From assembly GCA_036802685.1 (NCBI GenBank), contig DAIRVS010000001.1:14804-78803 (forward strand): 64,000 nt of DNA, written 5' to 3'. Source of the DNA: Myxococcota bacterium. GTDB lineage: Bacteria; Myxococcota_A; Polyangia; HGW-17. Positions within the stretch are counted from its first letter, which is position 1, and each line of letters opens with the position of its first letter. Positions 1 to 55,728 of this stretch are shown piece after piece. Position numbers and translations under genes: made by a program. The notes beneath the pieces were generated by a model. It was not told the DNA's origin. It did no database searches and saw nothing but the letters and a program-made list of their open reading frames with translations.

Positions 1-1824
1 ATAGGCCAGCTGCTGGGCCGTCTCGCGCAGCGCCGACGGCCGGCGGTGGGGATCCTGCTGCAGGCAGTTCTCGATCAACTCCACGAGGCCGCCGGGCAGG
101 TCCGGCCGCACGTCCGAGAGCCGGCGGCGCAGGCCCTTGATCTTGTTCTGGATGATCGTCTGCGTGTTCTCCGACTGGTACGGCGGCACCCCCGCGAAGA
201 ACTCGTACACCACGGCGCCGAACGAGTAGATGTCGGCCGCGCACGTGGCCTTCTCGCCCAAAAGCAGCTCGGGGGCGATGTACTCGGGCGTCCCCAGGGT
301 GATCCCCGGCCGCGTGAGGTCCTCGTCCATCCCCGAGAACGACTTGGCGATGCCGAAGTCGATCAGTTTCACCCGCTCGTCGCCGGAGGCGTCGCGCACC
401 AGGTGCAGGTTGTCGGGCTTGATGTCCCGGTGGATCAGCCCCGCCTCGTGGGCGGCCGCGATCCCGTAGGCCACCTGGGAGGCGTACTTGCACGCGCGGT
501 GCGGCGCCAGCGGTCCCTGGGTCAGGATCTCGCCCAGGTTGTGGCCCTCGAGCAGCTCCATGACCAGGAACGGCTTGACTCCCTCGATGAAGCCGTAGTC
601 CAGCACCTCCACCACCGACGGATGCGAGACCCGCGAGGCAGCCTTGGCCTCGCGTTCGAAGCGCACGCCGGCCTCCTCGGGGGACATGCTGCCCTTGGGC
701 TCGAGGACCTTCACGGCCACGCGGCGTCCCAGGGGCTGGTGGATGGCCTCGTAGACGCGCCCCATGCCGCCCTCGCCCAGGATGCGGGTGATCTGGTAGC
801 GCGAGGCGACGAGGTCGCCGGCGCGGATCTGGATCTCGCGCTTGCGGCTGCGGAACTCCTTGTAATCCTCGAGGAGGCGCTCGCGGTGCCCGACCTGCTG
901 CTTGCGCTCGGTGACGAACAGCGCGTGCATGAACGCCGCCGCGTCCCGGGAGTCGGTGCCCGGCGCGTTCTGCCCGAGCCAGGTGTTGGCCAGGGCGACC
1001 ACGTCCGAGGCCGAGGGGCGCTCGTCGGGGTCCGGGTCGAGCATGGACAGGATCAGGGTGTCCAGGCGCTCGTCCCCGCGGCCGCACACCGCCGTGGGAG
1101 GGCGCACCCCGGGCCCCTGGGCGCGGGCCTTGAGCTCGCGCATCATGTCCTCCTCCTTGCCGGGCTCGAACAGGCGGTGGCCGGTCACGAGCTCCCAGAA
1201 GAGGATGCCCAGGGAGTAGACGTCGGTGCGGTCGGTCATCTCGTCCCCGGCGGCCTGTTCGGGAGCCAGGTAGGGGAGCTTCCCGTAGATGATGCCGGGC
1301 TTGGTCAGGCGGCGGTTCTGGCCGGTGAGCGCCAGCCCGAAGTCCAGCACCTTGATCTCCCCCGAGAAGGTGAACATCACGTTGGGCGGGGACACGTCGC
1401 GGTGCACCAGGTTGAGCCCGTTGAAGCCATGGGCGTAGGAGAGCCCGCGGGCGGCCTCCTTCATCGCATAGACGATCACCGGCAGCGGGAACGGGACCCG
1501 CATCTGCGCGCACTGGTTCCAGATGGCGCGCAGGTTCTCGCCCTCGACGAGCTCCATGGCCATGTAGGCTTCCTGCCCCAGCACGCCGACGTCGAAGACC
1601 GACACCAGGTTGCCGTGCGCCATGCGCAGGGTGATCTCCACCTCGGACTGGAAGCGCAACAGCGCGTCCGGCGTCTGCGAGGAAGAGAGGATCTTCTTGA
1701 TCGCGCAGAACTTCTCCAGTCCGGGTTCCCCGTACACGGCCAGGTGGACCTGGCCCATTCCGCCGCGCGCCAAGGGTTCGAGCAACGTGTAACGACCGAA
1801 GGGGATGAATGATGATGCGCTCAT
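1..1824 (-). CDS. Tandem two-domain Hanks-type Ser/Thr protein kinase (partial; 3-prime end runs off window start)
   Basis: Minus-strand translation verified by hand. The N-terminal domain has ARGGMGQV, CAIKK, HRDVSPPN, DFGLA and YLAPE. The second domain has GEGGMGRV, VAVKVL, HRDIKPDN, DFGIAK and GTPEYIAPE. ATG is at 1824-1822. It is not in the ORF track because it is truncated at the window edge. Confidence 0.9.
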   Translation of the reverse strand, partial: MSASSFIPFGRYTLLEPLARGGMGQVHLAVYGEPGLEKFCAIKKILSSSQTPDALLRFQSEVEITLRMAHGNLVSVFDVGVLGQEAYMAMELVEGENLRAIWNQCAQMRVPFPLPVIVYAMKEAARGLSYAHGFNGLNLVHRDVSPPNVMFTFSGEIKVLDFGLALTGQNRRLTKPGIIYGKLPYLAPEQAAGDEMTDRTDVYSLGILFWELVTGHRLFEPGKEEDMMRELKARAQGPGVRPPTAVCGRGDERLDTLILSMLDPDPDERPSASDVVALANTWLGQNAPGTDSRDAAAFMHALFVTERKQQVGHRERLLEDYKEFRSRKREIQIRAGDLVASRYQITRILGEGGMGRVYEAIHQPLGRRVAVKVLEPKGSMSPEEAGVRFEREAKAASRVSHPSVVEVLDYGFIEGVKPFLVMELLEGHNLGEILTQGPLAPHRACKYASQVAYGIAAAHEAGLIHRDIKPDNLHLVRDASGDERVKLIDFGIAKSFSGMDEDLTRPGITLGTPEYIAPELLLGEKATCAADIYSFGAVVYEFFAGVPPYQSENTQTIIQNKIKGLRRRLSDVRPDLPGGLVELIENCLQQDPHRRPSALRETAQQLAY

Positions 1825-1969
1825 GGGTCCACATTATCCCACATTGTTGCCCCTCGCAATTTTTGTCGCGTTTCTCGGCCGCGTTTTCCCCGAACACCTG
1901 TTTTTCCGCCGTGGACATTCAATTTTTCTCTGGTAGATTATGGGAACGGCCCGCCGGAAAGGAGTCCCC

Positions 1970-3385
1970 ATGAACACGAGACACCGCCTGTTCCTGATCC
2001 CGTGGATCCTGCTGTCCCTCGTCGCCTGCGACGACGGCGGCACGAAGACGGGGTTCAACTCCAACAACGTCAACAACACGAACAACACGAACAACGTCAA
2101 CAACACCAACAACGTCAACAATATCAACAACGTCAACAACACGCAGATGGCGATCATCCGGGGCCGCGTGTGGAGCCCGGGCAGCGACGACCCGTTGGTG
2201 AACGACCACAACCGCATGCCGGTGCCCGGCGCGCTGGTGGCCATCTACACCAGCGGCATCGACGCCCCCCCGGACGGCAACTACTGCAACGAGTGCGTCG
2301 AGCTGCCCGAGGGCCTGCCCCACGTGTTCACCGACGCCGACGGCGCGTTCGAGATCCTCATCTATCCGAACCAGACCTACAACCTGCTGGTGCAGAAGGG
2401 CGAGTTCCGCCGCGTCACCCAGATCAACGTGGGCGGCCCCGGCGAGGTGATGGACCTGAACTCCCCGGCCGGCATGCCCACCAACACGATGACCACGCTG
2501 CCCAACTTCCATGACCCCGGCGCCGGCGCCTGGATGCCGCGGATCGCGGTGATCAAGGGCGGCTACGAGGACATGTCGCTGATGTTCGAGGCCCTGGGCT
2601 TCGACTACGACGGCGCCCGCGTGATCGAGGTCGATCCGGCCAGCGAAATCGGCTTCCCGATCCCGCCGTCCGAGGCCGACGAGCTCCTGGCGAACCCGAC
2701 CGAGCTCGCGAAGTACAACATCATCGTGATCACCTGCGGCGGCTCCACCACCGCGCTCACCAAGGGCACCGAGGCCAACAACCTGCGCGAGTGGGTGCGC
2801 GCCGGCGGCAAGCTCTACGTCGATGACTTCTCGTACGACTGGGCAGAGCAGAACTGGCCCGAGTTCCTCTCGTACTACCAGGAGCAGGGCTCCCAGGGCG
2901 CCGACGGCATGGGCGTGTGCGGCGACGACGATCCCTCCAGCCTGGGTGTCTGCAACAACTGGACCTCGTACTCCTGCACCGGCACGCCCCAGGACCAGAT
3001 GCTCACCGACTGGCTGGCCCTCAACGAGGTCAACCGCGGCTCGCCGATCCACCTCGAGGCGGCCTGGGACATCATCCACGAGCTGGGCAAGGGTCCCATC
3101 GGCGTGTGCGAGGACGACATGAACCCGGACTGCATCGACGGCGTCTACTACGCGCTGCCCAAGGTGTGGATGCGCGGCGACGCCCCCTCGAACCACCCGA
3201 ACAACCCGATGACCGTCTCCTGGAACTACTACTGCGGCAAGATCCTCTACACCGTCTACCACACCCACTCCGAGAGCGGCGGCTCCACCGATCCCAAGCA
3301 GTATGAACTCCTGATCCAGGAGAAGATCATGATGTTCCTGATCATGGAGATCCAGACCTGCACCAAGCCCAACATCATCGGCTAG
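1970..3385 (+). CDS. Secreted lipoprotein with Asn-rich tether and carboxypeptidase-regulatory-like beta-sandwich region; C-terminal ThuA/GATase1-like region (tentative)
   Basis: In-frame start inside ORF 1940..3385 with AAAGGAG RBS. Signal peptide with lipobox LVAC, then NNVNNTNN tract. The CarbopepD_reg-like segment reads AIIRGRVWSPGSDDPLVND...VPGALVAIY...DADGAFEILIYPNQ. Confidence 0.75.
   Translation: MNTRHRLFLIPWILLSLVACDDGGTKTGFNSNNVNNTNNTNNVNNTNNVNNINNVNNTQMAIIRGRVWSPGSDDPLVNDHNRMPVPGALVAIYTSGIDAPPDGNYCNECVELPEGLPHVFTDADGAFEILIYPNQTYNLLVQKGEFRRVTQINVGGPGEVMDLNSPAGMPTNTMTTLPNFHDPGAGAWMPRIAVIKGGYEDMSLMFEALGFDYDGARVIEVDPASEIGFPIPPSEADELLANPTELAKYNIIVITCGGSTTALTKGTEANNLREWVRAGGKLYVDDFSYDWAEQNWPEFLSYYQEQGSQGADGMGVCGDDDPSSLGVCNNWTSYSCTGTPQDQMLTDWLALNEVNRGSPIHLEAAWDIIHELGKGPIGVCEDDMNPDCIDGVYYALPKVWMRGDAPSNHPNNPMTVSWNYYCGKILYTVYHTHSESGGSTDPKQYELLIQEKIMMFLIMEIQTCTKPNIIG
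2063..2142 (+). repeat. In-frame tandem 6/9-bp repeat encoding (NNV/NNT)n linker
   Basis: aacaacgtcaacaacacgaacaac... periodicity seen directly. Confidence 0.8.
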
Positions 3386-3438: not shown

Positions 3439-4095
3439 CTACCGAAGGGCGAAGATGAGCACGGTGGTGAGCACCAGCGTCACCGCGATGATGCCCAGGA
3501 CGAGGACGAGATCGACGAGGAACGACGAGTTGCGGGCGGTGGGAGGAGGAGGAGGCACGTCCACGGCCTCCATGCGCAGGGTCTGCTCGGTCTCCCGGCG
3601 CCGGGGACCGCGGGGGCCGGACAGGCCGGGGATGCCGTCGTACGATGGCGGGGTCTGCAACGGGGGCGGCGGCGGCAACTGGCTCTGGGAGCGCTGCAGG
3701 CTGCGGGCCCGGCTGCGGGCGACGATCTCGCTCAGGTCGGGGTCCGCGGTGGCCACCGAGGGCACCGACGGCACCGGCGCGTCGTCGTGCATCGAGGACT
3801 CCACCTCGCCGGCGGAGAACTCGACCATGCCGTCCATGGCGTTCTTGCCCAGTTGCAGCGGCTTGCGGGACGGCGGCGGGATGGCCGGCTTCTTCTTGCC
3901 CGCGCCGGCCACGGCCGGGACCGGCGCCGGCGGCGGGGCGAGCATCCCGCCGGGGACGGGCATCTTCACCGTGTCGTTGTGCACCTTCTGCTGGCGGGAG
4001 CGACCCACGATGGGCAGCGCGTAATTGCACTGCAGGCAGCTCCCCGCCTTCAAGGCCTTGCGATTGAGCTCGACTCCGCAACCCGGACAGCGCAA
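3439..4095 (-). CDS. Tail-anchored membrane protein with N-terminal zinc ribbon (CPGCG...CLQC), Pro-rich linker and C-terminal TM helix
   Basis: ORF 3439..4095. The start codon is TTG (no ATG at the ORF head). It lies 13 nt downstream of the phosphoesterase stop with a GGGGGA SD-like run. GC3-rich. The internal ATG (MPVPGG) is an alternative start. Confidence 0.55.
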   Translation of the reverse strand: MRCPGCGVELNRKALKAGSCLQCNYALPIVGRSRQQKVHNDTVKMPVPGGMLAPPPAPVPAVAGAGKKKPAIPPPSRKPLQLGKNAMDGMVEFSAGEVESSMHDDAPVPSVPSVATADPDLSEIVARSRARSLQRSQSQLPPPPPLQTPPSYDGIPGLSGPRGPRRRETEQTLRMEAVDVPPPPPTARNSSFLVDLVLVLGIIAVTLVLTTVLIFALR

Positions 4096-4108: not shown

Positions 4109-4852
4109 CTAGACGCCCACGAACAGGCGGTTCCCGAAGTTGCGGTCGATCTTGGCCTGGAAGATCTTCATGGCCGAAGCTTCGATGTCGTACTCGACGC
4201 GCTTGTACTGGAAGGTGCGCTTCTGCGTGTCGAAGATGGTGTAGGCGGAGCGGTTGTCGTAGTCCCGCGGCTGGCCGACCGAGCCGACGCCGATGATGTA
4301 CTTCATGCCCGGCCGGATCGAGAACTCCTGGGCCACGATCTCGTGCACGTCGGCGCGCTCGAGGGCGAACGCCCGGCACAGGTGGGAGTGACCGATGAAG
4401 TTGACGTCCTGCAGGCCGTCGAAGTGGGGCAGCAGTCGGTAGGCCTGCTCGATGGAGAACACGTAGTCGAACTTCTCGGGCAGCACCGGCGAGCCGTGGG
4501 AGTACTGGATCTGCAGATCGTCGACTGTCTCGCGCAGGGTGTACGGCAGCGAGGCCAGCCACTTCGCGTTCTCCTCCGAGATCGACGAGGCGTGCAGGTC
4601 CAGCACGAACCGGCAGGCCTCGTAGTAGTAGTTGTAGTCCATGCGGCCGGCGACGGCGGCGTCGTGGTTGCCCAGCACGCAGGCGCGCACCAGGGGCCGC
4701 ACGAGGTTGCAGCAGGCGTCGGGGCTGGCGCCGTAGCCCACGACGTCCCCCAGGCACACGAACGCGTCGACGGACTCCGACTCGTAGGCCTCGAGCACCG
4801 AGGTCAGGGCTTCCATGTTCGCGTGAATGTCGCTGAATATCGCAATCCGCAT
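4109..4852 (-). CDS. Calcineurin-like metallophosphoesterase (YfcE/DR1281-like)
   Basis: ORF translation shows the phosphoesterase motifs IFSDIHAN, GDVVGYG, GNHD and GHSH. GAGGAAA RBS precedes ATG 4852. Confidence 0.85.
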   Translation of the reverse strand: MRIAIFSDIHANMEALTSVLEAYESESVDAFVCLGDVVGYGASPDACCNLVRPLVRACVLGNHDAAVAGRMDYNYYYEACRFVLDLHASSISEENAKWLASLPYTLRETVDDLQIQYSHGSPVLPEKFDYVFSIEQAYRLLPHFDGLQDVNFIGHSHLCRAFALERADVHEIVAQEFSIRPGMKYIIGVGSVGQPRDYDNRSAYTIFDTQKRTFQYKRVEYDIEASAMKIFQAKIDRNFGNRLFVGV

Positions 4853-4935
4853 GCTTTCCTCATCCGTCCGTGGCTGGCAGCGCGCGCTTCCTGCGCAGTT
4901 TCTTGCTTTCGCGCACGAAAATCAAGGCCCGATTC

Positions 4936-6198
4936 TCAGAACGAGAAGCCCACGGAGAGTCCGCCGGCCTGGCCGGTGAAGAACGGCAGGAAGGTCACCG
5001 CGCCGTCGTCGGCGCCGACCTGTCCCTGGACCTCCGGCTCGGACGAGAGATAACCCTTGTACAGGAAGAACGTGGAGACCAGGCCCACCGTCACGCCCGC
5101 GGCCACCAGGATGTTGGTGTACATCGCGAAGGACTGGCCCTTGTCGCAGGTGTCCTTCATGTCGGCGGTCGGGTTCTTGCAGACGTCGTTGACGCCGGCG
5201 TACGAGGCCGGATCCGCCTTCATGATCTTGTCCTTGTCGTCCTCGTAGGCCAGCACCTGCAGGCCCGTGTAGGTCCCAGCGCCGATGAGCACGACGGCCG
5301 TGGCGGCCGTGGACCAGAAGCCCACCTTCCACAGGTTCATGGGCTTTCCGGGCTCCTCGGGCTTGGGCGGCGTGACGCCGGGATCCTTGCCGTCCGGGTC
5401 CTTCACGTCGGGATCCTTCACGTCCGGGTCCTTCACGTCCGGGTCCTTGACCACGGGGTCCTTCGGCGTCGGGTCCTTGACCACGGGGTCCTTCGGTGTC
5501 GGATCCTTGGGCATCACGGCCGCGGGGAACTCGACCTTGACGATGGTGGTCTCACCGGCCTTGATGGTGACCGAAGTCTTCCACTCGGCACCGGACTTGC
5601 TCTTCACGACGATGTTATGCGGCCCGGGGGTGATCGAGGGGATCACGTTGGCGCCCGGGATCGTGGACATGACGAAGACGTTGTCGATGAAGACCTTGGC
5701 GTCGGCCTCGAGGCAGGAGATCTCGAGCTTGGCCACCTTGGGCTGGAACTGGTTGTTCCAGGCCTCGGTCAAGAGTTTGGGGAGCTCGGCCTTCTTGCTC
5801 TGGGGCACCGAGACGTTGGCGAACTGGAAGGTCTTGTTGACGTAGAAGAAAATGGTGACCTTGAACTGGCTCGCGTCCTTGGTCACGCGGCCGGTGACCA
5901 GCACGTCGACCTGGAGGTTGGTCGCGATCTTGGGGATGCACTTCTGCGGATCCTCTTCCTCGCAGTAGAGCAACTTGTTCTCTTCGAGCTCCGACGGCGG
6001 CCCCAGCTTCCAGTCGGCCTGCTTCTTGGCCAGATCCCGCAGCGTGTTGGTCGCGGTCTTGCCCAATTGGACGTCTAGGCCGGCGTCCACCTCGAACCCC
6101 AGCACCACCGCCTTCTTCGAGCTGGCCAGCGCGGGCGTGCAGAACGTGAAGATCAGGAGAAAAGCCGCTAGTTGTCGTGAGAACATCGTCGCCTCCAT
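4936..6198 (-). CDS. Secreted PEGA-domain protein with (KDPxV)n charged repeat tract and C-terminal two-TM anchor module
   Basis: Start moved to MEATMFSRQ... at 6198, giving a signal peptide ending ALASS. The PEGA-like segment reads VFIDNVFVMSTIPGANV...GPHNIVVKSKSGAEWKTSVTIKAGETTIV. KDP repeats follow. Hydrophobic segments occur near the C-terminus. Confidence 0.75.
   Translation of the reverse strand: MEATMFSRQLAAFLLIFTFCTPALASSKKAVVLGFEVDAGLDVQLGKTATNTLRDLAKKQADWKLGPPSELEENKLLYCEEEDPQKCIPKIATNLQVDVLVTGRVTKDASQFKVTIFFYVNKTFQFANVSVPQSKKAELPKLLTEAWNNQFQPKVAKLEISCLEADAKVFIDNVFVMSTIPGANVIPSITPGPHNIVVKSKSGAEWKTSVTIKAGETTIVKVEFPAAVMPKDPTPKDPVVKDPTPKDPVVKDPDVKDPDVKDPDVKDPDGKDPGVTPPKPEEPGKPMNLWKVGFWSTAATAVVLIGAGTYTGLQVLAYEDDKDKIMKADPASYAGVNDVCKNPTADMKDTCDKGQSFAMYTNILVAAGVTVGLVSTFFLYKGYLSSEPEVQGQVGADDGAVTFLPFFTGQAGGLSVGFSF
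5381..5510 (-). repeat. In-frame tandem 15-bp repeat encoding (P/V/D)KDP(T/V/D)V units
   Basis: gggtccttcacgtccgggtccttgaccacg... periodicity seen directly. Confidence 0.8.
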
Positions 6199-6273
6199 CC
6201 GTTCGTGACAAGTTACTATACATAAACTGAACCGAAAGACAACTTCCGACTGACAAGGGTGGTTCATGTGAAA

Positions 6274-6287
6274 GTTCACGTGTGAAC
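6274..6287. promoter_or_regulatory. Perfect 14-bp palindrome GTTCACGTGTGAAC in low-GC region upstream of the PEGA gene (candidate operator)
   Basis: Seen directly, about 76-89 nt upstream of start 6198. The flanks contain additional TGAA/TTCA half-sites. Confidence 0.3.
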
Positions 6288-6376
6288 GTGGCGTGAATGT
6301 TCGGTGAAGATTTTAGCCACTATGTAGGCCGTTTTTATGCCAAACGCCACCAGCCATGGGACATTTTTTCCACAGT

Positions 6377-8339
6377 TCATTTCCTTACAACGCGAAAGCC
6401 GGTGACGTAACTCAATCCCGTAGGAGAGTATCCTCCTCGATAGGACACTGAGCAGTAATTCGCCGTACTGGCCCAGTTTCCACCGCGACGAACGCGGTTG
6501 GTTCCTGTAGCCGACCCTCGATAATCCGTAACGGTTCCCGTTGGGTAGGTGCCGAAATAATCCCACATCCATTCCCATACGTTTCCGCTCATATCAAAAA
6601 TTCCGAGTTCGTTGGACAACTTGGTGCCCACGGAATTACTTCGTCCCGTTGTGGTTCGGCCAGTCTCACTTGTGTTGTACCCGAACACCGCATAATCCAT
6701 GATGGGGTTTGATCCTGTGCTTCCAGCGAATACCTTCATGAACCCGGTCGTGTTCGTGGCGCCCGGGGCAGCCGTGTCAGCGCCCATCGCCGCCCACATC
6801 CACTCCATTTCGGTTGGCAGCCGATACCCATCGGCTGTCCAGTTCGCCGTCGCTGCGTCCCAATCGGCGTTCGTGTCCATCGGAATCTGATCGTAAGTCA
6901 GACTGTTAAAATCGACACCGATGACTGAGTAAACTGGCGTCAACCCCCTCTAAAAGACTCAATTTGTTGCAGAAAGCAACCACCCTATACCATGACACAC
7001 TTTGCACAGGGTCGCTCATTCCCCCCGAAACCGATGGATCGCTCGGGTCCAGCCATCCCGTCACGGCCATCCATTGGGCTCGGGTAATTTCGTATTGGCT
7101 TATCCGAAAAGCCGACACAATGCTAAGGTTCGGTCCCATCGTGTCCCGCTGGAAAGTTCCGGCTGCAACATAGACCATCGTTCCGATGTTCTGGCTCTGG
7201 TAATTCATCGTGCAAGTTGATGTCACAAACCCGGTACAACCTGAATTGCAGGTGAGCAGTCCGCTGGCGAAACCCCGCGTGACACATGTCTGTCCATTCA
7301 GGTTCGATCCATCACACGTCTCACTTTCATCGATCATTCCGTTGCCGCACATCGTGCAAGTGGACGTGACAAACCCAGTACAGGCTGGGTTGCACGCGAG
7401 TGACCCGCTGACGAAGCCTTGTGTGACACAGGTGTGGCCATTTAAATTTGATCCATCACAAGTCTCACCATAGTTACCCTGGATGACTCCGTCACCGCAA
7501 CGCCCTGCCAAGACACAGGAAGTGTCGTCGAAGGCCTGGCAATCTGTGCTGCAAGAGAGCGTTCCTCCATACCAACCTTGAGAGACGCAACTCTGCCCGT
7601 TCATGTCTGCTCCGTCACAGGTTTCACCGCCATCGATTGCTCCGTTGCCACACATCGTGCACCCACCTGTAAAAAACTCCGAACATCCGGCATTACATAC
7701 CAGCGTACCGCTGACGAAACCCTGCGAGAAACAAGTCTGTCCATTCAAATCCAGTCCATCGCAAACTTCCTCATCATCCACAGAGTCATTGCCACAGTTC
7801 GTGCACCCCGACGTATCGAACGCTGTGCACTCCGAATTGCAACCAAGCACGCCGCCATAAAAGCCGAGCGAAGTACACGTCTCGTCATCCAGATCCGTGC
7901 CGTCGCAGGGTTCAAACGGACTCGCAGCCACGAGGTCCCCACATTCCGCCGTCAGTTCGCACAGAGAGACGTCCCAACGGCACACGTCCTTGCATCCGAG
8001 CACACCACCACCCAACCCCAACTCCGAGCAGGATGTATCTGCCAAATTGACACCATCACATTGCTCTCCATGGACTGTTTGGATGGCTCCGTCCCCGCAA
8101 CGCCCTCCTGTGCACACCGCGAGGTTGAACGTGCAATCGCTTCGACAGGTTAAAACACCTTCTTGCCCATAGTAGCCCAAGTCCGCGCACGTCGCGGCTG
8201 TCATCGCATCACCGTCGCACTCCTCGCCCGGATCCAAGAAATCGTCGCCACAGGAATCGACGTTCTTCGTCTTCGTATCGCAGCCCCACACCAGCAGACA
8301 GGTGCCCAACAGCATCGAGATCAAGGTCCTTATGGTCAT
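6377..8339 (-). pseudogene. Frameshifted paralog of the lipoprotein / Myxococcus Cys-rich repeat / FGE-sulfatase domain protein
   Basis: Two overlapping minus ORFs (6906..8423 and 6377..6943) together align with the intact paralog 29324..31327. The break is at a G5 run (forward c5 at 6943-6947): gagggggttgacgcc here versus gaggggttgacgcc in the paralog, a +1 frameshift. Start MTIRTLISMLLGTCLLVWGC at 8339 with GGAGGA RBS. The gene has markedly lower GC than its neighbours. Confidence 0.7.
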
Positions 8340-8490
8340 GGCGGTCCTCCAGAGGATGGAAAAAGCGTAGTCGGTTCCCGCATCACGGTCAAGCATCAGA
8401 ATTTCCTCCATTTCCTGGTACAAGATCCATGAAGCGGACCCTGACCCGCCGATACCCCAATTTTTTTTAACAAAAACAAGCAGTTAGACC

Positions 8491-8637
8491 ATGTCACATG
8501 AGTTTGAGTCAGGCTTTTTCCATGCCACGCCGCCGTGGCACGGGCTGGGAACCATCCTCGAGGACCCGCCCGAGACCGCTCCCCCCCGCAACGCGGGTGT
8601 TCAGTTACCAATAATTCCAGTCGACTTCACCAATTGA
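8491..8637 (+). pseudogene. Remnant (N-terminal ~48 codons) of a DUF932 / TIGR03299 phage-plasmid-like protein
   Basis: A short ORF in a low-GC intergenic patch translates to MSHEFESGFFHATPPWHGLGTILED... The HE.ESG...TPWHGLG pattern is, to my recollection, the N-terminal hallmark of 300-aa DUF932 proteins. The ORF stops after 48 codons. Confidence 0.35.
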
Positions 8638-8830
8638 AGATGTTTACCCTTGAACCCACTGGAGAAGAAAACATGCGCGTGAATACCCACCCTCTGGTTT
8701 GAATGGATGATCTTCACCGAGTGAGTTACTGCAGCAGCACCAAAAGGACCGGCACTCATCGTAGCGCACAAACAGCTTGCGTTCGGGCGGTGGGGGCGGC
8801 ACCCTCGGAGGCGGACGAAAGGAGGTCCCC

Positions 8831-9430
8831 ATGAAGAAGCTCGTCACCCTCTGCGCGGTTCTCGTCACGCTGACCGCGGCCGGCGCCGCGGCCGGACAGG
8901 CGCGGATGCGCACCCCGATGGACCTGGCCCAGTGGTCGAAGACCGGGGGCGGCGGCGTCACCCTGGACGGCATCTCGTACACCGACGAGGAGGACCACAA
9001 GGTCAGCGGCAAGATCCTGCGGGCCGACCCCTGGGCGGGCCTGTTCGTGCTGCCCAGCCTGGCCGTCGTGGGCAACCTGCACGTGCAGAGCCCGTTCGGC
9101 GACCACTTCGTGGACCGGCCCGACGTACTCGGCTTCACCGCCGGCGTGCGTTACTTCAAGCAGCTCTATCATTTCTACGGATACGTCGGGCTCCAGCTCG
9201 GCGGCCTGATCTTCTCGCGCACCGGCGACGAGAACCTGAAGATCCACGCCGAGGGTCTCAACGACGACACCAAGGGCTTCATGGCGACGCTGCCCCTGGG
9301 CCTTTTGTTCCCGCTGAGCCGCAACCTGGCCGTGGAGCTGGGCGTGCGCGTGCACTCCGTCTGGCTGTCCGGGGGCGCCCACTGGCTGGAGTATTCGGTG
9401 GGCTATCTGGGCATCTTTTTGTGTTTCTAA
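8831..9430 (+). CDS. Small outer-membrane beta-barrel-like protein (signal peptide, alternating amphipathic strands, C-terminal Phe)
   Basis: In-frame start MKKLVTLCAVLVTLTAAGAAAG with AAAGGAGG RBS. Ends ...GIFLCF. Confidence 0.65.
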   Translation: MKKLVTLCAVLVTLTAAGAAAGQARMRTPMDLAQWSKTGGGGVTLDGISYTDEEDHKVSGKILRADPWAGLFVLPSLAVVGNLHVQSPFGDHFVDRPDVLGFTAGVRYFKQLYHFYGYVGLQLGGLIFSRTGDENLKIHAEGLNDDTKGFMATLPLGLLFPLSRNLAVELGVRVHSVWLSGGAHWLEYSVGYLGIFLCF

Positions 9431-9434
9431 AGAA

Positions 9435-11282
9435 TCAGTTCGGCACGCAGCGGTAGTTGTCCGCGGGGGGTCCGGTGAAGGTGGTGCCGATGTCGCCGCC
9501 CAGGGTGCCGTCGGCGTTCTCGTAGCCGATGGTGGCCGAGAAGCCCGATCCCAGCCAGGTGGAGCGGTCGTAGATCACCTCGAAGGCGTTGGAGCCTTCG
9601 TACAGGCGGATCTGCATGGTCACCTTGGAATCGGTGCCGCCACCGATGATGCGACACTGGTGCCATTCGAGCACGAACACCCGGTTCGGCGAGGAACCTT
9701 GGGTCTGGTACAAGAGCCGGGCGTCGGGCCAGGTGGTCTGGGAGTAGACCAGATCGTCCCAAAAGATGTAGATCGCGGCGTTGGGCGTCGCCGAATTGGG
9801 GAGGGTGGTGTTGGTCCATTCGTTGGTGCCAGGGTCGGCACCGAAAGAGGCCCAGCCGTTGGTACAGAAATAGCCATCCGTGTAGTTCTGACCGAAGTAG
9901 CGGAAGGTGAAGGGGATCGTGAACGGGAAACGCCCGTCGATCACCCAGGTTTCCGTGGTGAGCGACGTGCCGGAGTACCGGATCGTCGAGTAGGTCGCGG
10001 CGAGGGCCGAGCAGGTGTAGGCACCGGCGGGGGCCTGGCAGATTCCGGCGTTGCAGGTCTGGCCCAGGGCGGCGCAGTCGGTGCCGTTGGCCCAGCTCCA
10101 GCAGCCGTAGCCGTCCTGGACGCAGGACTGGGTGACGCTGCCGTCACAGCGGGCCTGACCCGAGGAGCAGGCGTTGTTGCACACGCAGGTGTTGCCCGAG
10201 CAGGACCGTCCGGTGGCCGCGCAGTTGATGCCGTCGGCCCAGTCGTAGCAGCCGGTGCCGGCGAGCGAACACGACTGGATGACGTCGCCGAAGCAGCGCA
10301 CGGCACCCGAGGCACAGGTGTCGGTGCAGGTGTTCACGCACTGAGCCGAGCCCGAGGAGGTGTCGCACACCTGACCCAAGCCCGCGCAGTCCTGCACCGT
10401 GCTCCAGGCCCGGCAGCCGTTGCCGCCGGTGACGCAGCTCTGGCGGACGGTGCTCAGACAACGGGTGCTGCCGTCGGCGCACTCGTGCACGCAGGAGCAC
10501 GCGCCCCCGGAGCACACCTGGCCCGCGGCGGCGCAGTCGGCGCCGTTCACCCAGATGCGGCAGCCCGAGCCGTCGGTGCCGCAGGTCTGCACCACGTTTC
10601 CGCTGCACTGGGGCGGGGCGCCCGCCTCGCACTGGTGGACGCAGGGATCGGTGCAGGCGGCCGCGGCGCCGGTCCCGGTGCACACCCAGTTAGTCAGCGC
10701 GCAGTCCTGCACGTCCTTCCACTGGGCGCAGCCATTCTCGCCGGCCTGGCAGCGCTGCAGCACGTTTCCCGTGCAGAAGCCGTCGCCGAGGGTGCAGGCG
10801 TCGGTGCAGGAGTCCGCGCAGGCGGCGGAGCCCGAGGCGTCGTCGCACACCTGGTCGCCGGTCGCGCAGTCCACCGAGGTCTCCCACGCGCGGCAACCCT
10901 GGTCGTCGGCCGCGCAGAGCTCGAGGAGGTTGCCGTTGCAGCGCAGCGCGCCGGCCGGATCGCAGGTGTGGTTGCAGGCCGCGCGGCAGAACGTGGTGTT
11001 GTACGCGCACGACGAGGAGCAGCCCAGGCTGCCGCTGGCGAACCCTAGGCTCACGCAGGTGGCGCCGCCCAGATCGCCGCCGTCGCAGTCCTCGCCGTCC
11101 GAGAGGACGCCGTCCCCGCAGCCGGCTTCGGTGCAGTCCTGCGGACAGGAGTCCGCGTCCTCGGCGGGCTGGCAGGTGCCGTCGCCGCAGGTGGTCACGC
11201 CGCCGCCGCCCTTGGCGCAGGAGAAGAGGGCGCCGACGAGGGCGGTGGAGAGAAGAAGGATAAAATATTTTTTGATAAACAT
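9435..11282 (-). CDS. Secreted lipoprotein with Myxococcus cysteine-rich repeat, eight ~47-aa Cys-rich repeats, and a C-terminal beta-rich domain
   Basis: True start MFIKKYFILLLSTALVGALFSC at 11282, in frame with ORF 9435..12413 whose upstream part is an antisense artefact over ackA. Repeats C..G..RC.GN..Q.C...G.GC..W....DCA..GQVC occur 8 times. A CGDG...CD..DLGGATCVSLGF module is present. Confidence 0.75.
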   Translation of the reverse strand: MFIKKYFILLLSTALVGALFSCAKGGGGVTTCGDGTCQPAEDADSCPQDCTEAGCGDGVLSDGEDCDGGDLGGATCVSLGFASGSLGCSSSCAYNTTFCRAACNHTCDPAGALRCNGNLLELCAADDQGCRAWETSVDCATGDQVCDDASGSAACADSCTDACTLGDGFCTGNVLQRCQAGENGCAQWKDVQDCALTNWVCTGTGAAAACTDPCVHQCEAGAPPQCSGNVVQTCGTDGSGCRIWVNGADCAAAGQVCSGGACSCVHECADGSTRCLSTVRQSCVTGGNGCRAWSTVQDCAGLGQVCDTSSGSAQCVNTCTDTCASGAVRCFGDVIQSCSLAGTGCYDWADGINCAATGRSCSGNTCVCNNACSSGQARCDGSVTQSCVQDGYGCWSWANGTDCAALGQTCNAGICQAPAGAYTCSALAATYSTIRYSGTSLTTETWVIDGRFPFTIPFTFRYFGQNYTDGYFCTNGWASFGADPGTNEWTNTTLPNSATPNAAIYIFWDDLVYSQTTWPDARLLYQTQGSSPNRVFVLEWHQCRIIGGGTDSKVTMQIRLYEGSNAFEVIYDRSTWLGSGFSATIGYENADGTLGGDIGTTFTGPPADNYRCVPN

Positions 11283-11361
11283 CGCACGCGCTCCCTCTAG
11301 CGCGCCCAGTATAGCGTCAAAACGCGGATCTGCGAGGAAAAGATCCCCCGTGGTCGGGAGC

Positions 11362-11380
11362 ATTCTTTTCTGTGAAAAGA
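11362..11380. promoter_or_regulatory. Palindrome TTCTTTTC-TGT-GAAAAGAA in the divergent promoter region between ackA and the Cys-rich lipoprotein gene
   Basis: Perfect 8-bp arms with 3-nt spacer, seen directly. Confidence 0.3.
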
Positions 11381-11492
11381 AAAACAGATCATCCTTGCCA
11401 CCGGGATCCGGTTCCAGTACCGTGGGCCCGGTGCCCGAGCCCCGGGCCGGGGGCAGGCCGGACGGCGGTCCTGCCTCCCAGGAGGTCATTCC

Positions 11493-12692
11493 ATGCTCGT
11501 GTTCGTGATCAACTGCGGTTCTTCGTCGATCAAGTACCAGCTCTTCGAGATGCCCGAGAAGCGCCAGCTCGCCCGCGGCCTGCTCGAGCGCATCGGGGAG
11601 ACTGGTTCGGCGGTGCTCACCCACCGCGCCGGCGAGGGCAAGTGGATCCTCGAGGTGCACGCGCCGGATCACCGGGCCGGCCTCGACCACATCCTGCGGA
11701 CGCTGGTCTCCGGGGAGACCGCCGTCATCGACGACCTGTCCAGCATCCGGGCGGTGGGCCACCGCGTGGTGCACGGCGGAGAGCAGGTCCGTGAGGCCGT
11801 GGTCATCGACGCCGCGGTGGAGGACGTGATCGCCGGGTGCGCCGAGCTCGCCCCCGTGCACAACCCGCCCAACCTCATGGGCATCCGCACCGCGCGGGCC
11901 GTGCTGCCGGACTGCGTCCAGGTGGCCGTGTTCGACACCGCCTTCCATCACACGCTGCCGAAGAAGGCCTACCTGTACGCCCTGCCGCTGGAGCTCTACG
12001 AGCAGCACCGCATCCGCAAGTACGGCTTCCACGGCACCTCCCACGAGTACGTCGCCCAGGAGACCGCCCGCCGGCTCGGGAAGCCGCTTTCGGCGTGCAA
12101 CCTCATCACCTGCCACCTGGGGAACGGCTGCTCGATGACCGCCATCGAGGCCGGTCGCTCGGTGGACACCTCCATGGGGATGACGCCGCTGCAGGGGCTC
12201 ATGATGGGCACGCGCAGCGGCGATCTGGACCCGGCCGTGCTGATCCACCTGCTGCGCAACGGGTGGGTCGCCGACGTCGCCGAGCTCGACCGCCTGCTCA
12301 ACCGCAAGTCCGGCCTGGCCGGCATCTCGGGGCTCGGCAACGACATGCGCACCCTCGAGGAGCACATGGAGACGAACGAGCGGGCCAAGCTGGCCGTGGA
12401 AATGTTCGCCCACCGGGTGCGCTTCTACCTGGGCGGCTACCTGGCGCTCCTGGGTTCCTGCGACGCCGTGGTCTTCACCGGCGGCATCGGCGAGAACGAC
12501 TCCCTGCTGCGCCGGCTCGTGCTCGAGGGTCTCGCCCCGCTGGGCCTGGAGCTGGACCCGGCGGCCAACACCGCCACCGTGCGCGGGAAAGAAGGCGCGA
12601 TCACCACCGCGGCGAGTCGCATCCCGGCGCTGGTGATCCCCACCGACGAGGAGGGCATGATCGCCGCGAGCACCTACGCCCTGGCCCGCTAG
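11493..12692 (+). CDS. ackA: Acetate kinase
   Basis: N-terminal VINCGSSSIKYQLF hallmark. Full-length 399 aa. GGAGG RBS. Confidence 0.95.
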   Translation: MLVFVINCGSSSIKYQLFEMPEKRQLARGLLERIGETGSAVLTHRAGEGKWILEVHAPDHRAGLDHILRTLVSGETAVIDDLSSIRAVGHRVVHGGEQVREAVVIDAAVEDVIAGCAELAPVHNPPNLMGIRTARAVLPDCVQVAVFDTAFHHTLPKKAYLYALPLELYEQHRIRKYGFHGTSHEYVAQETARRLGKPLSACNLITCHLGNGCSMTAIEAGRSVDTSMGMTPLQGLMMGTRSGDLDPAVLIHLLRNGWVADVAELDRLLNRKSGLAGISGLGNDMRTLEEHMETNERAKLAVEMFAHRVRFYLGGYLALLGSCDAVVFTGGIGENDSLLRRLVLEGLAPLGLELDPAANTATVRGKEGAITTAASRIPALVIPTDEEGMIAASTYALAR

Positions 12693-12779
12693 CCACCCAG
12701 GGACCCCCGCAAAAGGGCGGCCCGTTTGAGGTCCGCGACCCGAAGACGGGTCACGAAGTGACCGGAATCATCTTCTTCT

Positions 12780-12824
12780 CCGATCCCGATTTCGATCCCG
12801 ATTTCGATTTCGATTTCGACTTGG
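12780..12824 (-). repeat. Intergenic element CCAAGTCG(AAATCG)3 GGATCGAAATCGGGATCGG, copy B, minus orientation, about 20 nt after the stop of the minus-strand RCC1 lipoprotein gene
   Basis: The reverse complement of the forward sequence matches copy A over CCAARTCGAAATCGAAATCGAAATCGG. Confidence 0.7.
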
Positions 12825-12842
12825 AACCGGAGTCGGACCCGG

Positions 12843-14870
12843 TCACAGGGAATAATCGTCCACGGGGAGGATCACGCGGCGGGGCACCAAGGCGGCGGTG
12901 GTGGTCAGGTTCCCCAGCTGGCCTTCGGAGTTGTGGCCCCAGCAGTACAGTTCGCGGTCCGCAGTGAGCCCGCAGGTGTGGGTGACGCCGGGAGAGACGG
13001 CGTTGAACCGCAGATCGGTGACGACCGTGGTGGCCGTACTGCGATTCGTAGTGGTGCCGTCGCCGAGCTGGCCGTACTGGTTCCACCCGAAGCACAGGGT
13101 GGTCCCCAGCACGCCGTGGAGCAGACAGGTGTGGGAGCCGAAGGTCCACGTCGCCGCGGCGTCGATGTGGCCGTCGATCTGCACCGGCGTGAGACGGTTG
13201 GTGAAGGTGGCGTCGCCGAGTTGGCCGTAGTTGTTCAGGCCCCAGCAGTATACGATCCCGCCGGTGGTCCGGGCGCAGGTGTGGCCCGTGCCGCAGGTGA
13301 CGGTGGCGATGTTGGTGAGGGAGGAGATGGCCACCGGCACCCGGGAGTCCGTGGTGTTGCCGGTGCCGAGCTGGCCATTGTCGTTACGACCCCAGCACAC
13401 CCCGTTTCCAGTCTGATTACGCAAACAATTGTGTTCGTAGGAGCTTGAGATTTGAGTAGCCAAAGACACCCCCGAGACCTGCACCGGCACCGCGCTCGAG
13501 GTCGTCGAGTTGTTGCCCAGTTGGCCCCGGGCGTTGTCCCCGAAGCACCACGCGGTCCCGAGGAGGGTCAGGACGCAGGTGTGCCGAAAGCCCAGGCCCA
13601 GCTGGATCGCGTTGGTGAAGATCCCCGCCCGCACCGGCAGGGACGAGTGGGCGGCGATCCCGTGGCCCAACTGGCCCGAGTCCCCCCGGCCCCAGCACCA
13701 CACCTCGCCGCCGGCGCGCAGGGCGCAGGTGTGGAAGTAGCCGGCCTGCACCGCGGTGACGTCCTCGAGGCCCTGGACCAGCACCGGTCCGGTCCGGTCC
13801 GCGGTGGTGCCGTCGCCGAGCTGGCCCATGGAGTTGTCCCCCCAGCACAGCACCCGTCCGGTGTTCAGCAGGGCGCAGGTGTGCAGGTAGCCCGCGGACA
13901 CGGCCACCGGATACCGGAGGCGGTTGCACAGGTACTCCTCGCGGGTGACCTCGGGATCGCCCAAAACGCCGTCCCCGTCGAGGTCCAGCCCCGTCTCGAC
14001 GAGCACGCCGCCATAGGGGCAGGCGCCGCCCCACTCCACCGTCGTCAGCCGGGTGAGGGCGTTGTGGCCGTGGCACACGGCCTGTTCGTCCTGGACCTCG
14101 CCGTCGCCGAGGGCGCCGTCCCCGTCGGTGTCCAGCCCCGTCTTCACGAGGAGACCGCCCTGGGGACAGGGCGCGCCCGGCGCCAGCGGATCCACCCGCA
14201 CCAGGGAGTTGGTCCCGACCGTTCCGTCCTCGCCGGGGGCCCCATGGCAGACATAGGAGACGTCGTCCACCTCCAGCGGTCCGAGGACGCCGTCGCCGTC
14301 GTCGTCGAGGCCGGTGGAGACGGCCAGGCCGCCGTGCAGGCAGTTCGCGCCGGCGGGCTCGTCCAGAATGCTCACCAGGGAGGCGGGACCGCCGCCGGTG
14401 CCCGACGCGCTCTGGCAGACAAGGTTTGAACTCGTTCGTTCGTCTTCATCCAGAACCGCATTCCCGTTCTGGTCCAGACCCCAGTAGTAACGCTGGCCGC
14501 CGTTGGGACACTCGACGCCGGGGGCGAGCTCCTCCACGTGGAGGAGCGTGGACAGCCCGTCCCGCCCGTCCTGGCCGTCCTGGCCGTTTTCACCGTTTTC
14601 ACCGTTTTCACCGTCCTCGCCGTCGTCGCCGGGGAGCCCGTTGCAGACCGTCTGGATGCTCTCGATCTCGCCGGTCTCCAGGGCCCCGTTGCCGTTGGTG
14701 TCCTTTCCGGCCATGACCACCATACCCCCATACGGGCACTGGATGGACGAGGCCGACTCGATGAGCACCAGGGTGCCCTGGCCGTCCTGGCCGTCCTGGC
14801 CGGTGCAGGCCAGGAGCGCCCAGAGCAGCGACGACGTGAGCAGCAGACGGCGATGGAACAACTTGCGCAT
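12843..14870 (-). CDS. Lipoprotein with collagen-like G-x-y tracts, five ~45-aa CPxGG / D-x-D-G-D-G (Ca-binding-like) repeats and a C-terminal RCC1-repeat beta-propeller
   Basis: Start [22 protein letters not shown] at 14870 (codon 132 of ORF 12843..15263). Eight or more CWGxNxxGQLGxG RCC1-type repeats. GQDGQDGQG and [19 protein letters not shown] tracts are present. Confidence 0.8.
14563..14640 (-). repeat. In-frame 9-bp tandem repeat encoding [16 protein letters not shown]
   Basis: ggccgttttcaccgttttcaccgttttcacc seen directly. Confidence 0.8.
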
Positions 14871-55400: not shown

Positions 55401-55584
55401 GGTACACCCAGGCCATGGCGCCCTCCCCCACGAATTCCTCCATGCGATAGCGCTTTTCGATGACGGCGCCCACCAGGCTCGCACCGTCGCGCTGCGGAAG
55501 GTGGGTCAACGGACTGCGGCACTCCGGACACTCATGGAACGAGAGTCCGTTGGGCAGACGGCAGTTTTCGCAGACCCGGAACAT
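52459..55584 (-). CDS. STAND-type Ser/Thr protein kinase: zinc ribbon, Hanks kinase, second zinc ribbon, P-loop NTPase (AAA/NACHT-like), TPR-like C-terminal region
   Basis: CENC..CPEC; GEGAMAWVY; VAVKLL; HRDLKPDN; DFGIA; CPACG..CPHCG; Walker A GELGIGKT. A long helical C-terminus follows. Confidence 0.85.
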   Translation of the reverse strand: MFRVCENCRLPNGLSFHECPECRSPLTHLPQRDGASLVGAVIEKRYRMEEFVGEGAMAWVYRGAHIDLGSSVAVKLLKPAFAQDARFLARFKKEATAIGALSHPNILSVITSGDTRTGIPYMVCEFIKGASLGGVLQKEGRLPWKRAQHIFGQILSALDEAHSREVVHRDLKPDNIMVMSMRSGEDFCKIVDFGIALHQVPNEQRLTQHGEIFGTPEYMSPETIKGGAATAASDLYSAGIILYEMITGQLPFTGPAIFDVLLAHIEKRHVPPTQLAPELPKEIDLVLERALAKNPAERLQSAAEFKKLLQFSTGPANVPCPACGLEMRADHKFCPHCGATNRALAQPGRGEDPAAAADTLERILLREKPFEAPIFGRDREKIRITDFLRSHRLYLELSGELGIGKTALVRSALADLGTIPVAVYHVDPDPMGCQRSWWPARELARQLAGLPDQPGLDDLLGVCMALELDPEDVPHILHLFELDADTPTLEFQVRLREMITSVARFLCAATHGRPTLLVFHDVDVYDLPSCRVLEQLYFMIQGLPIKVITTGEHPLFVSDDMPPELYEHLPLGRLDDDVARDLGFVVMAANGGSWQGQIPSLVSAAGGLPLHLVEGMRLLAEGGSEVGLRLADLVQTRVRRLPKKAQHLLQWIAIYGNVVPISVAEFALGPGSHAAAAIDVCERRGFLNRIIGPGEVSLQLAHPLLARLILEEMPATLRAEIHEALLESEHAGGLDPHVLAFHALYAHRLEDASKHFEHAAAHCEFRLDDQGAVFYYRKAHELAKMDALSGKNELRYAQISARYGDLLRWSGQLHAAETVLREALTFCVDCASCEAVILASLARCAVASQDDRAEDLISRAARMAQKARDPQVLYRVFHDFGEIELQKGRFDLGITQLRMGLAMLEGIPRMPLSTWRLYLQCAKFEFLRGQHEQAIDTCMSALEKPFVSRSHLACSRLHEQLARMYIQMKRSPEAVEHLKKTVHFMLHTGDRVSLVENTLHLGELDLPMRTEWAENALSLSSRIGFFRGMEQAGALLSAGPG

Positions 55585-55728
55585 GTGGCCGGCACTCCTT
55601 GCAGCCTTCAACGCCATCCTGGCGAGGCCGAGCCTTCGAATCGTCGGGGGAAAGTCGAAGGTGAATCGAATATACCTAATAATTGGGTATAAACAAGACC
55701 CATTATGGACCTCCCTCGGAATGATTTT

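Follow-up and report, generated by a model that had tools for sequence, protein, structure and literature searches.

In the JAK kinases, the JH2 domain has lost the HRD aspartate, and its glycine loop and its DFG and APE motifs are degraded. By the standard definition, a pseudokinase is recognised by the loss of the β3 lysine, the HRD aspartate or the DFG aspartate, and WNK is active though pseudokinase-like, its missing catalytic lysine being supplied from elsewhere (PMC12599244). Among myxobacterial kinases, MasK has been described as a tyrosine kinase (PMC2877116), and recombinant MasK made in E. coli is reported to react with an anti-phosphotyrosine antibody (PMC3546991). We examined a tandem-kinase gene at the start of a 64,000-nucleotide stretch of DNA (hereafter the window) from a Myxococcota bacterium (GTDB lineage Bacteria; Myxococcota_A; Polyangia; HGW-17; GenBank assembly GCA_036802685.1, contig DAIRVS010000001.1, positions 14,804 to 78,803 of the forward strand). 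The gene encodes two Hanks kinase domains, the first of which carries a serine in place of the catalytic-loop lysine. On balance, we somewhat favour the reading that the product is a transmembrane (TM) receptor kinase with a TPR-like end and two domains that would both be catalytically competent, the first using a relocated catalytic lysine.

Minus-strand translation of positions 1-1824 gives a single uninterrupted frame of 608 codons that runs off the start of the window, with its ATG at 1824-1822 and a stop three codons 5' of this start, and the remaining two minus-strand frames hold many stops. The full-length version, retrieved since the gene runs off the window as the earlier note had observed, is an 802-residue protein, P0001, with both domains in one chain (100% identical, four member sequences on two independent contigs). 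The Pfam family Pkinase (PF00069) scores 291 bits against a cutoff of 31.7 over two stretches, the best at amino acids 343-599 and the other in the N-terminal half, and a purpose-built kinase hidden Markov model (HMM) places the domains at amino acids 11-279 and 339-605 (independent E-values 1e-96 and 1e-100), which bears out the claim of two complete Hanks kinase domains on one polypeptide. The Pfam matches of the 608 visible residues comprise kinase-related families only, and the precomputed list for full-length P0001 likewise comprises kinase families only. The gene and its main parts, with secondary structure taken from AlphaFold2 (AF2) and its confidence given as the predicted local distance difference test (pLDDT), are as follows.

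1..1824, minus strand: tandem-kinase gene, visible amino acids 1-608 of 802, ATG at 1824-1822
955..1800, minus strand: N-terminal kinase domain of the Ser...Lys class defined below, amino acids 9-290 (Pfam Pkinase, own HMM, AF2, Foldseek)
841..951, minus strand: long inter-domain α-helix of 37 residues, amino acids 292-328 (AF2 secondary structure, pLDDT >90)
10..798, minus strand: C-terminal canonical PknB-like kinase domain, amino acids 343-605 (Pfam, HMM; Foldseek TM-score 0.9 to PknB and PknA)

The part of the protein beyond the window start is its last 194 amino acids, made up of a juxtamembrane linker, a TM helix, a disordered stretch and a TPR-like end. In P0001, the linker that follows the second kinase domain leads to a hydrophobic helix (amino acids 647-666) and then to about 80 disordered Ala/Pro-rich residues, and the protein ends in three confidently predicted helices (amino acids 750-800, pLDDT >90), which align with TPR repeats that are longer and detectable by Pfam in more distant family members. 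This layout suggests that both kinases would be cytoplasmic and the TPR-like end outside, as in receptor kinases of the PknB type. The C-terminal domain is canonical, as previously claimed, with the motifs GEGGMGRV, VAVK, HRDIKPDN (nucleotides 432-409), DFG and GTPEYIAPE.

The first domain departs from the canonical pattern at two aligned positions, and the elements that bear on its catalytic state are these.

1747..1770, minus strand: Gly-rich loop A19-R-G-G-M-G-Q-V26 (invariant: M23, G24; conservation of 90% or more: G21, G22)
1696..1698, minus strand: β3 Lys K43 (CAIK), ATP-binding, retained (invariant in 68 and 50 aligned members)
1642..1644, minus strand: αC Glu E61, retained (invariant in family alignments)
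1381..1404, minus strand: catalytic loop HRDVSPPN, amino acids 141-148 (aligned counterparts: HRDVKPGN in PknA, HRDIKPDN in the second domain)
1336..1344, minus strand: DFG, amino acids 161-163, retained (invariant in family alignments)
1303..1305, minus strand: activation-loop Thr T174 in the motif L-T-K-P-G (invariant; aligns with PknA Thr172)
1258..1284, minus strand: P+1 loop G-K182-L-P-Y-L-A-P-E (G181 and K182 invariant; covariation)

S145, with the codon TCC at 1392-1390, occupies the position of the canonical catalytic-loop Lys (PKA K168), and K182, with the codon AAG at 1281-1279, fills the position of the conserved Thr of the 'GT' pair (PKA T201), where the alignments show GTAQY in PknA and GTPEY in the second domain as counterparts of the GK of the first. 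The APE motif of the first domain stands at amino acids 187-189. In the family alignments of 68 and 50 members, K43, E61, H141, R142, D143, N148, D161-F-G, E189, D201 and R269 are invariant, and so are S145 and K182. The Gly loop, β3 Lys, αC Glu, HRD Asp, loop Asn, DFG Asp and APE Glu are found in both domains of the protein, and the catalytic-loop Lys (HRDxKxxN) in the C-terminal one (HRDIKPDN), the first having Ser145 there. Thus, it holds that the first domain lacks only the catalytic-loop Lys and keeps the other catalytic motifs. The wording that this Lys is replaced by Ser-Pro is right as to the exchange of Lys for Ser, which is unusual, and not as to the proline, since the Pro that follows is the normal one of HRDxKPxN. 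Given that the catalytic base and both metal ligands are conserved, this does not look like a decaying domain. It is furthermore an 'RD' kinase, with the invariant R142, and T174 is likely a regulatory phospho-site, judging from its alignment; the L-T-x-P-G motif is common to both domains of the protein.

In the AF2 prediction, the N-terminal domain adopts the standard bilobal kinase fold (pLDDT 87; predicted template modelling (pTM) score 0.88), and the best Foldseek matches of the model are active CDK2, S. aureus PknB and M. tuberculosis PknA. Among solved structures, sequence and profile matches gave none closer than PknB, PknA, Stk1, StkP and PknE, all of which we take to be canonical Lys/Thr-type kinases, the motif having been checked for PknA only. 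It thus appears that there is no solved structure for the Ser...Lys class.

Upon comparing the protein with a homologue set made of the 120 best database clusters, which span from 94% to about 36% identity, we observe the motif HRD[VI]SP[PA]N in the first domain in 120/120 and HRD[LI]KPxN in the second domain in 120/120, all of them two-domain proteins. The named sources of these homologues are Myxococcota, Polyangia, Haliangiales and Kofleriaceae, and the finished genome of Haliangium ochraceum is included. These counts bear on whether the serine codon could stem from faulty sequencing or assembly, or the tandem from two separate genes that a frameshift or misassembly has merged, a reading to which we give practically no credence. 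It has in its favour that the assembly is of the metagenome type and that the gene leaves the window at its edge. Against it, TCC differs from AAA/AAG at all three bases, and therefore no single base error could produce the Ser; the identical 802-residue protein has four member sequences on two contigs; and both the Ser and the fusion recur in 120/120 homologues, the finished Haliangium ochraceum genome among them. Sequencing error and false gene fusion are refuted by these observations taken together. The earlier note had itself raised an error in the HRDVSPPN codons and a split into two separate genes as grounds for dropping its claim; the former is contradicted by the Ser in all 120 homologues and by a codon three bases away from AAA/AAG, and the latter by the lack of any stop or frameshift between the domains and by every homologue being fused alike.

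A second set, taken with the N-terminal domain alone as query, consisted of the 146 best representatives of clusters at 50% identity. Their architectures include at least 64 tandems of an atypical followed by a canonical domain, 18 proteins with two atypical domains and 22 with an atypical domain alone, as well as a few very large proteins that carry four to six kinase-like domains. On contigs drawn from one genome per species, the tandem is present at 8/80 loci, and these eight belong to metagenome-assembled genomes titled Myxococcota, Myxococcales, Kofleriaceae, Haliangiales, Polyangia or Deltaproteobacteria. The architecture had been called rare in bacteria, which is at odds with its presence in 120/120 best clusters, at least 64/146 representatives and 8/80 genome loci. 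The gene of the window is an ordinary, conserved member of a large Myxococcota family, and neither an error nor a unique oddity.

Evidence for the reading of two competent domains comes from covariation between the two altered positions. We aligned 532 kinase domains from 266 proteins by HMM and tabulated the residues at the loop (K168) and P+1 (T201) positions, with the following result, given as loop residue/P+1 residue.

Lys/Thr: 223 of 532 domains
Lys/Ser: 9 of 532 domains
Ser/Lys: 220 of 532 domains
Ala/Arg: 16 of 532 domains
Ser/Arg: 11 of 532 domains
Thr/Lys: 8 of 532 domains
Asn/Lys: 4 of 532 domains
Cys/Arg: 3 of 532 domains
Other combinations: 38 of 532 domains

A Lys or Arg at the P+1 position is found in 0/236 domains with a loop Lys, 233/236 of which have Thr or Ser there, and in 263/296 domains without a loop Lys. 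When the Arg site of tyrosine kinases (at +2) is considered along with the K168 and T201 sites, exactly one basic residue is present among the three in 512/532 domains. In 19 domains, all three sites lack a basic residue; 14 of these are degenerate elsewhere too (Asp, Asn or Lys lost), and by their sequence we class these 14 as true pseudokinases. A second-order pairing is also observed, in which a loop Ala or Cys occurs only with Arg (21/21 of such domains with a P+1 Lys or Arg), and a loop Ser, Thr or Asn mostly with Lys (212 versus 14 with Arg). A single domain, though nested within the class, has gone over to HRDLSPRN together with GT, a solution in the style of tyrosine kinases. An approximate tree by the unweighted pair group method with arithmetic mean (UPGMA) gives a minimum of about five switches from Lys/Thr to x/Lys, with a deep topology that is unreliable, and this count is not relied on. 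In PKA, the side chains of K168 and T201 touch each other and D166, and a Lys at the T201 position would therefore be sterically placed to replace K168.

For operational purposes, we define the Ser...Lys class as domains with HRD-x-[S/T/A/C/N]-P-x-N and G-[K/R] at the P+1 'GT' site, with the other catalytic residues intact. It comprises 263 domains, among them the first domain of the window's protein (HRDVSPPN with GKLPYLAPE). Single-domain kinases of this class are found in Myxococcus and Corallococcus (HRDISPDN with GKYLFFSPE), in Archangium (HRDVSPQN with GKYAYFAPE), in Bacteriovoracia and Bdellovibrionales of the Bdellovibrionota (HRDISPQN with GKPSYLSPE) and in Thermoanaerobaculia and Holophagaceae of the Acidobacteriota (HRDVSPQN with GKLQYMSPE).

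The earlier note had likened the protein to the pseudokinase-kinase tandem of JAK, so that the first domain would be a dead or very weak nucleotide-binding module that regulates, scaffolds or dimerises the C-terminal kinase. The missing catalytic-loop Lys speaks for such a role, as mutation of this Lys strongly lowers the activity of canonical kinases, and so do the order of the atypical and the canonical domain, fixed in 120/120 family members, the long helix that joins them, and the true pseudokinase domains that precede canonical ones in the related multi-kinase proteins P0159, P0183 and P0191. However, none of the three pseudokinase hallmarks is seen in the first domain, where K43, D143 and D161 are present and invariant. 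All five catalytic residues are intact in 256/263 non-Lys domains with a basic P+1 residue (97%), as against 227/236 canonical domains (96%), and the compensating basic residue covaries with the loss of the Lys. Additionally, the class occurs as stand-alone single-domain kinases, which have no partner domain to regulate, and it contains an orthologue of MasK, a protein reported to be phosphorylated when made in E. coli. We therefore regard the JAK-like role as unlikely. The three multi-kinase proteins are of interest in their own right, as P0159 (2573 aa), P0183 (2592 aa) and P0191 (2510 aa) are arrays of five or six successive kinase-like domains, of which the N-terminal ones have lost one or more of the HRD Asp, Asn and DFG Asp and the last two are canonical Lys/Thr domains. 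These arrays would fit the description 'pseudokinase then kinase' far better than the window's gene.

The link to MasK was made by gene order. The mgl locus, reached via MglA, contains a three-gene operon that is divergent from mglBA and ends just before recR, and the description of masABK in PMC3546991 matches such an mglBA-adjacent, recR-flanked operon. In two genomes, the kinase of this operon shows the motifs HRDISPSN...GKYMYMAPE and keeps its β3 Lys, HRD Asp, Asn and DFG. Defined by synteny, the mglBA-adjacent kinase is the MasK orthologue, and its motifs assign it to the Ser...Lys class. Indirectly, MasK offers a precedent for phosphorylated kinases of this class, presumably active without the loop Lys. 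A further kinase, P0328 of M. fulvus (HRDVSPEN with GKYLFF), is annotated as 'tyrosine-protein kinase' by similarity only, and as a MasK orthologue it is ruled out by its context, which does not adjoin mglBA. It was read at a locus where four kinase genes are clustered in 8 kb (L085, Myxococcus fulvus 124B02, 4629-12968), two of them with a kinase-TPR layout; the kinase read there, P0328, belongs to the Ser...Lys class, and the cluster suggests local tandem duplication of the class in Myxococcus. Another duplication is seen in P0121 (719 aa), with two nearly identical Ser...Lys domains in tandem, the first of which reads HRNISPPN and TNFG, both catalytic Asp having become Asn; this may be a very recent duplication with one inactivated copy, or an assembly artefact.

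In eukaryotes, the K168 and T201 positions separate Ser/Thr kinases (HRDLKPxN, GT) from Tyr kinases (HRDLAARN, P-x-x-W). It is thus conceivable that the first domain is active with a changed reaction, as a tyrosine or dual-specificity kinase or on a non-protein substrate, which we consider quite unlikely. Both altered positions line the pocket of the phospho-acceptor, and the class member MasK has been called a tyrosine kinase, its recombinant form being reported as anti-phosphotyrosine-reactive (PMC3546991, PMC2877116). The M. fulvus paralogue (HRDVSPEN with GKYLFF) carries the corresponding annotation, but this was assigned purely by similarity, and P0328 has been ruled out above as the orthologue of MasK. 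Moreover, the catalytic loop retains the Pro of Ser/Thr kinases (S-P-x-N), the P+1 loop is of Ser/Thr-type length and pattern (G-x-x-x-Y-x-[AS]-P-E), and there is neither HRDLAARN nor P-x-x-W. The anti-phosphotyrosine result is old and indirect, without later mapping of sites in the literature searched.

Returning to the reading of two competent domains, we propose a single-pass membrane receptor in which the N-terminal kinase would be followed by the long helix, the second kinase, the TM helix and a short extracytoplasmic TPR-like end. The first domain would belong to a MasK-like subclass that is widespread in bacteria, with a small residue at the K168 site and a Lys or Arg at the Thr of the P+1 'GT', and in it K182 would take over the role of K168 towards the γ-phosphate and the transition state. 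Since K182 is on the activation segment, the activity of the first domain would hinge on the ordering of this segment. Phosphorylation of T174, read by the retained HRD Arg, may order the segment and deliver K182 to the active site; the neighbouring canonical domain is the obvious candidate for this phosphorylation, with autophosphorylation as the other possibility, and the outcome would be a two-step RSK-like relay within one polypeptide. What the data show directly is the architecture, the motif content, the invariance within the family, the covariation across the class and the place of the MasK orthologue in that class. The catalytic role of K182, the activity of the first domain, the direction of any intramolecular phosphorylation, the membrane topology and the biological input and output are our inferences from sequence. 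Overall, we think it probable that the first domain is not dead but functions as a kinase, of a type that has received little study, and the tandem resembles a pair of active kinases in series more than a dead regulatory domain beside a live one.

Several observations weigh against this reading. Five domains are intact although all three sites are without a basic residue, and hence the rule is not absolute. In the approximate UPGMA tree, 222 of about 260 Ser...Lys domains fall in one large clade, and the covariation may reflect few evolutionary events, with Fisher p-values that ignore phylogeny. Furthermore, AF2 models the activation loop of the N-terminal domain (amino acids 167-180) with low confidence, and in the full-length prediction both domains are confident at a pTM of 0.50, from which the packing of the domains is not readable. 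As for MasK, the motif was read in orthologues of the Corallococcus type and not in M. xanthus MasK itself, and the evidence is an antibody cross-reaction known second-hand. Finally, the neighbourhoods compared at four family loci (the window's own, L001; L002; L003 of Haliangium; and L004) have no shared neighbours and give no clue to a pathway.

The two domains of the tandem protein are 31% identical and lie in separate deep clades of the approximate UPGMA tree, and therefore it looks, by sequence, as if the protein arose when a MasK-class kinase was joined to a PknB-class receptor kinase, and not by a recent internal duplication. On the plus strand, an open reading frame (ORF) at 46-1812 (588 aa), antisense to the kinase gene, encodes a low-complexity product rich in Arg, Gly, Ala and Leu; this is a chance ORF as expected in DNA of 67% GC, and no gene.

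The exchange of the loop Lys for a P+1 Lys is not described in the literature searched, the coverage of which left out Perez 2008, Thomasson 2002 and the 2025 serine/threonine kinase (STK) atlas. Searches of the literature for myxobacterial tandem kinases and Hanks kinases returned nothing on this tandem family, and those with the loop motif strings HRDVSP, HRDISP, HRDVAP, HRDVTP and HRDIAP returned nothing relevant. A 2025 review of bacterial pseudokinase families covers seven families, none with the Ser...Lys signature. Provisionally, the pairing of a loop site that has lost its Lys with a Lys at P+1 can be called new. Kinase annotation and pseudokinase censuses lean on few motif positions, and the class shows that the loop-Lys position can be vacated, with the covariation pointing to the P+1 'GT' position as the place where the charge went. 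If confirmed, this would be a second natural case, after WNK, of a catalytic Lys from a different structural element, and a Lys on the activation segment would couple the chemistry directly to the ordering of the activation loop. The work also links a widespread receptor family of tandem kinases in Myxococcota to MasK, the one myxobacterial Hanks kinase reported to give phosphotyrosine. A bolder proposal, to which we attach a low probability, is that the Ser...Lys domains form a large multi-phylum lineage in which the Lys migrated to the P+1 loop and the remodelled pocket became tyrosine- or dual-specific. Were this true, the lineage would be the source of the long-unexplained Hanks-type tyrosine phosphorylation in myxobacteria, and the window's family would combine a Ser/Thr kinase and a Tyr or dual-specificity kinase in series in one receptor.

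Regarding the gene neighbourhood, a gene of the RNase II family lies near two of the four loci compared, and a second kinase gene near the two others. In Haliangium ochraceum (L003, 2794-5910), an RNase II/R-family (RNB) gene is directly upstream of the tandem kinase, and on the window's contig (L001, 21727-22409), an RNB gene lies about 9 kb from it; this proximity at two of four loci could be chance. Two flanking genes (window 1940-3385, plus strand, and L001 12480-14240, plus strand) encode lipoprotein-like proteins with long N-terminal linkers of low complexity, Asn-rich and of the pattern NNxNN, e.g. NNVNNTNNTNNVNNTNN; Pfam gives no significant match for the 1940-3385 protein, and none is on record for the L001 12480-14240 protein. 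Upstream, the minus strand of the window encodes a Pro-rich TM protein of 218 aa with a Zn-ribbon (3439-4095), a calcineurin-like phosphoesterase of 247 aa (Metallophos_2; 4109-4852) and a protein of 447 aa with tandem KDP-x-VKDP repeats (4936-6279). Pfam gives no match for the first and the last of these, and none of the three could be tied to the kinase. No defence genes are present around the tandem kinase, the neighbours being lipoproteins, a phosphoesterase and a hydrolase. Among anti-phage kinases, PglW of BREX (132 bits against a cutoff of 990) and MADS6 (275 against 460) were rejected. A second kinase gene of the window (52459-55617, minus strand, 1052 aa) has canonical HRDLKPDN and GTPEYMSPE motifs, with the order Zn-ribbon, kinase, Zn-ribbon, AAA_16/STAND-type ATPase and TPR, a common myxobacterial architecture unrelated to the tandem family.

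Compared with the known systems, JAK JH2-JH1 and the window protein both have two kinase folds per chain with the atypical one first, but the first domain of the window protein keeps its HRD, Gly-loop, DFG and APE motifs, the homology being through the kinase fold only. FERM and SH2 modules are absent from the Pfam matches of the visible 608 residues and of full-length P0001, and Foldseek with the full-length model returned single-domain matches only and no tandem of the JAK type. The proposed logic is that of RSK/MSK, in which two active domains are present in one polypeptide and one controls the other; this is an analogy only, as RSK/MSK are eukaryotic fusions of AGC and CAMK domains, unlike the window protein. 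In WNK, as would be the case in the window's first domain, an apparently missing catalytic Lys is supplied by another structural element. There, however, it is the β3 ATP-binding Lys that is relocated, to the β2/Gly-loop strand, whereas in the window the catalytic-loop Lys would have moved to the P+1 loop; the relocation is proven structurally for WNK and proposed for the window protein, and the two share no close homology. In eukaryotic tyrosine kinases (HRDLAARN), the loop Lys is also replaced by a small residue and an Arg at +2 compensates, a solution that a few class relatives have adopted (HRDLSPRN with GT, HRDVTPRN with GS). By contrast, the compensating residue of the window protein would lie in the P+1 loop, which is Ser/Thr-type in length and pattern, and the eukaryotic tyrosine-kinase motifs (HRDLAARN/HRDLRAAN, P-x-x-W) are absent from the first domain, which reads HRDVSPPN with GKLPYLAPE.

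Both domains find their best matches, in sequence as in structure, among receptor kinases of the PknB, PknA and StkP type, and these have in common with the window protein the layout of kinase, juxtamembrane linker, single TM helix and extracytoplasmic part. They differ from it in having one kinase domain, HRDxKPxN with GT, and PASTA or other sensor domains. The NCBIfam model PknB_PASTA (NF033483) scores 419.9 bits summed over the two domains, below its cutoff of 450, and no PASTA repeats are found in the C-terminal part of P0001, which consists of the disordered linker and the three TPR-like helices. MasK (M. xanthus MXAN_1929), which is membrane-associated and reported to interact with MglA, has, judging by its synteny-defined orthologues, the same catalytic signature as the window's first domain, and its kinase domain is likewise N-terminal and cytoplasmic and followed by a hydrophobic segment. 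Whereas MasK has one kinase domain, another C-terminal region and a place in the masABK operon beside mglBA, the window protein carries a canonical kinase domain in addition to its first one, ends in a TPR-like part and is not linked to mgl, and it is a class relative of MasK (in the range of about 35% identity), not an orthologue.

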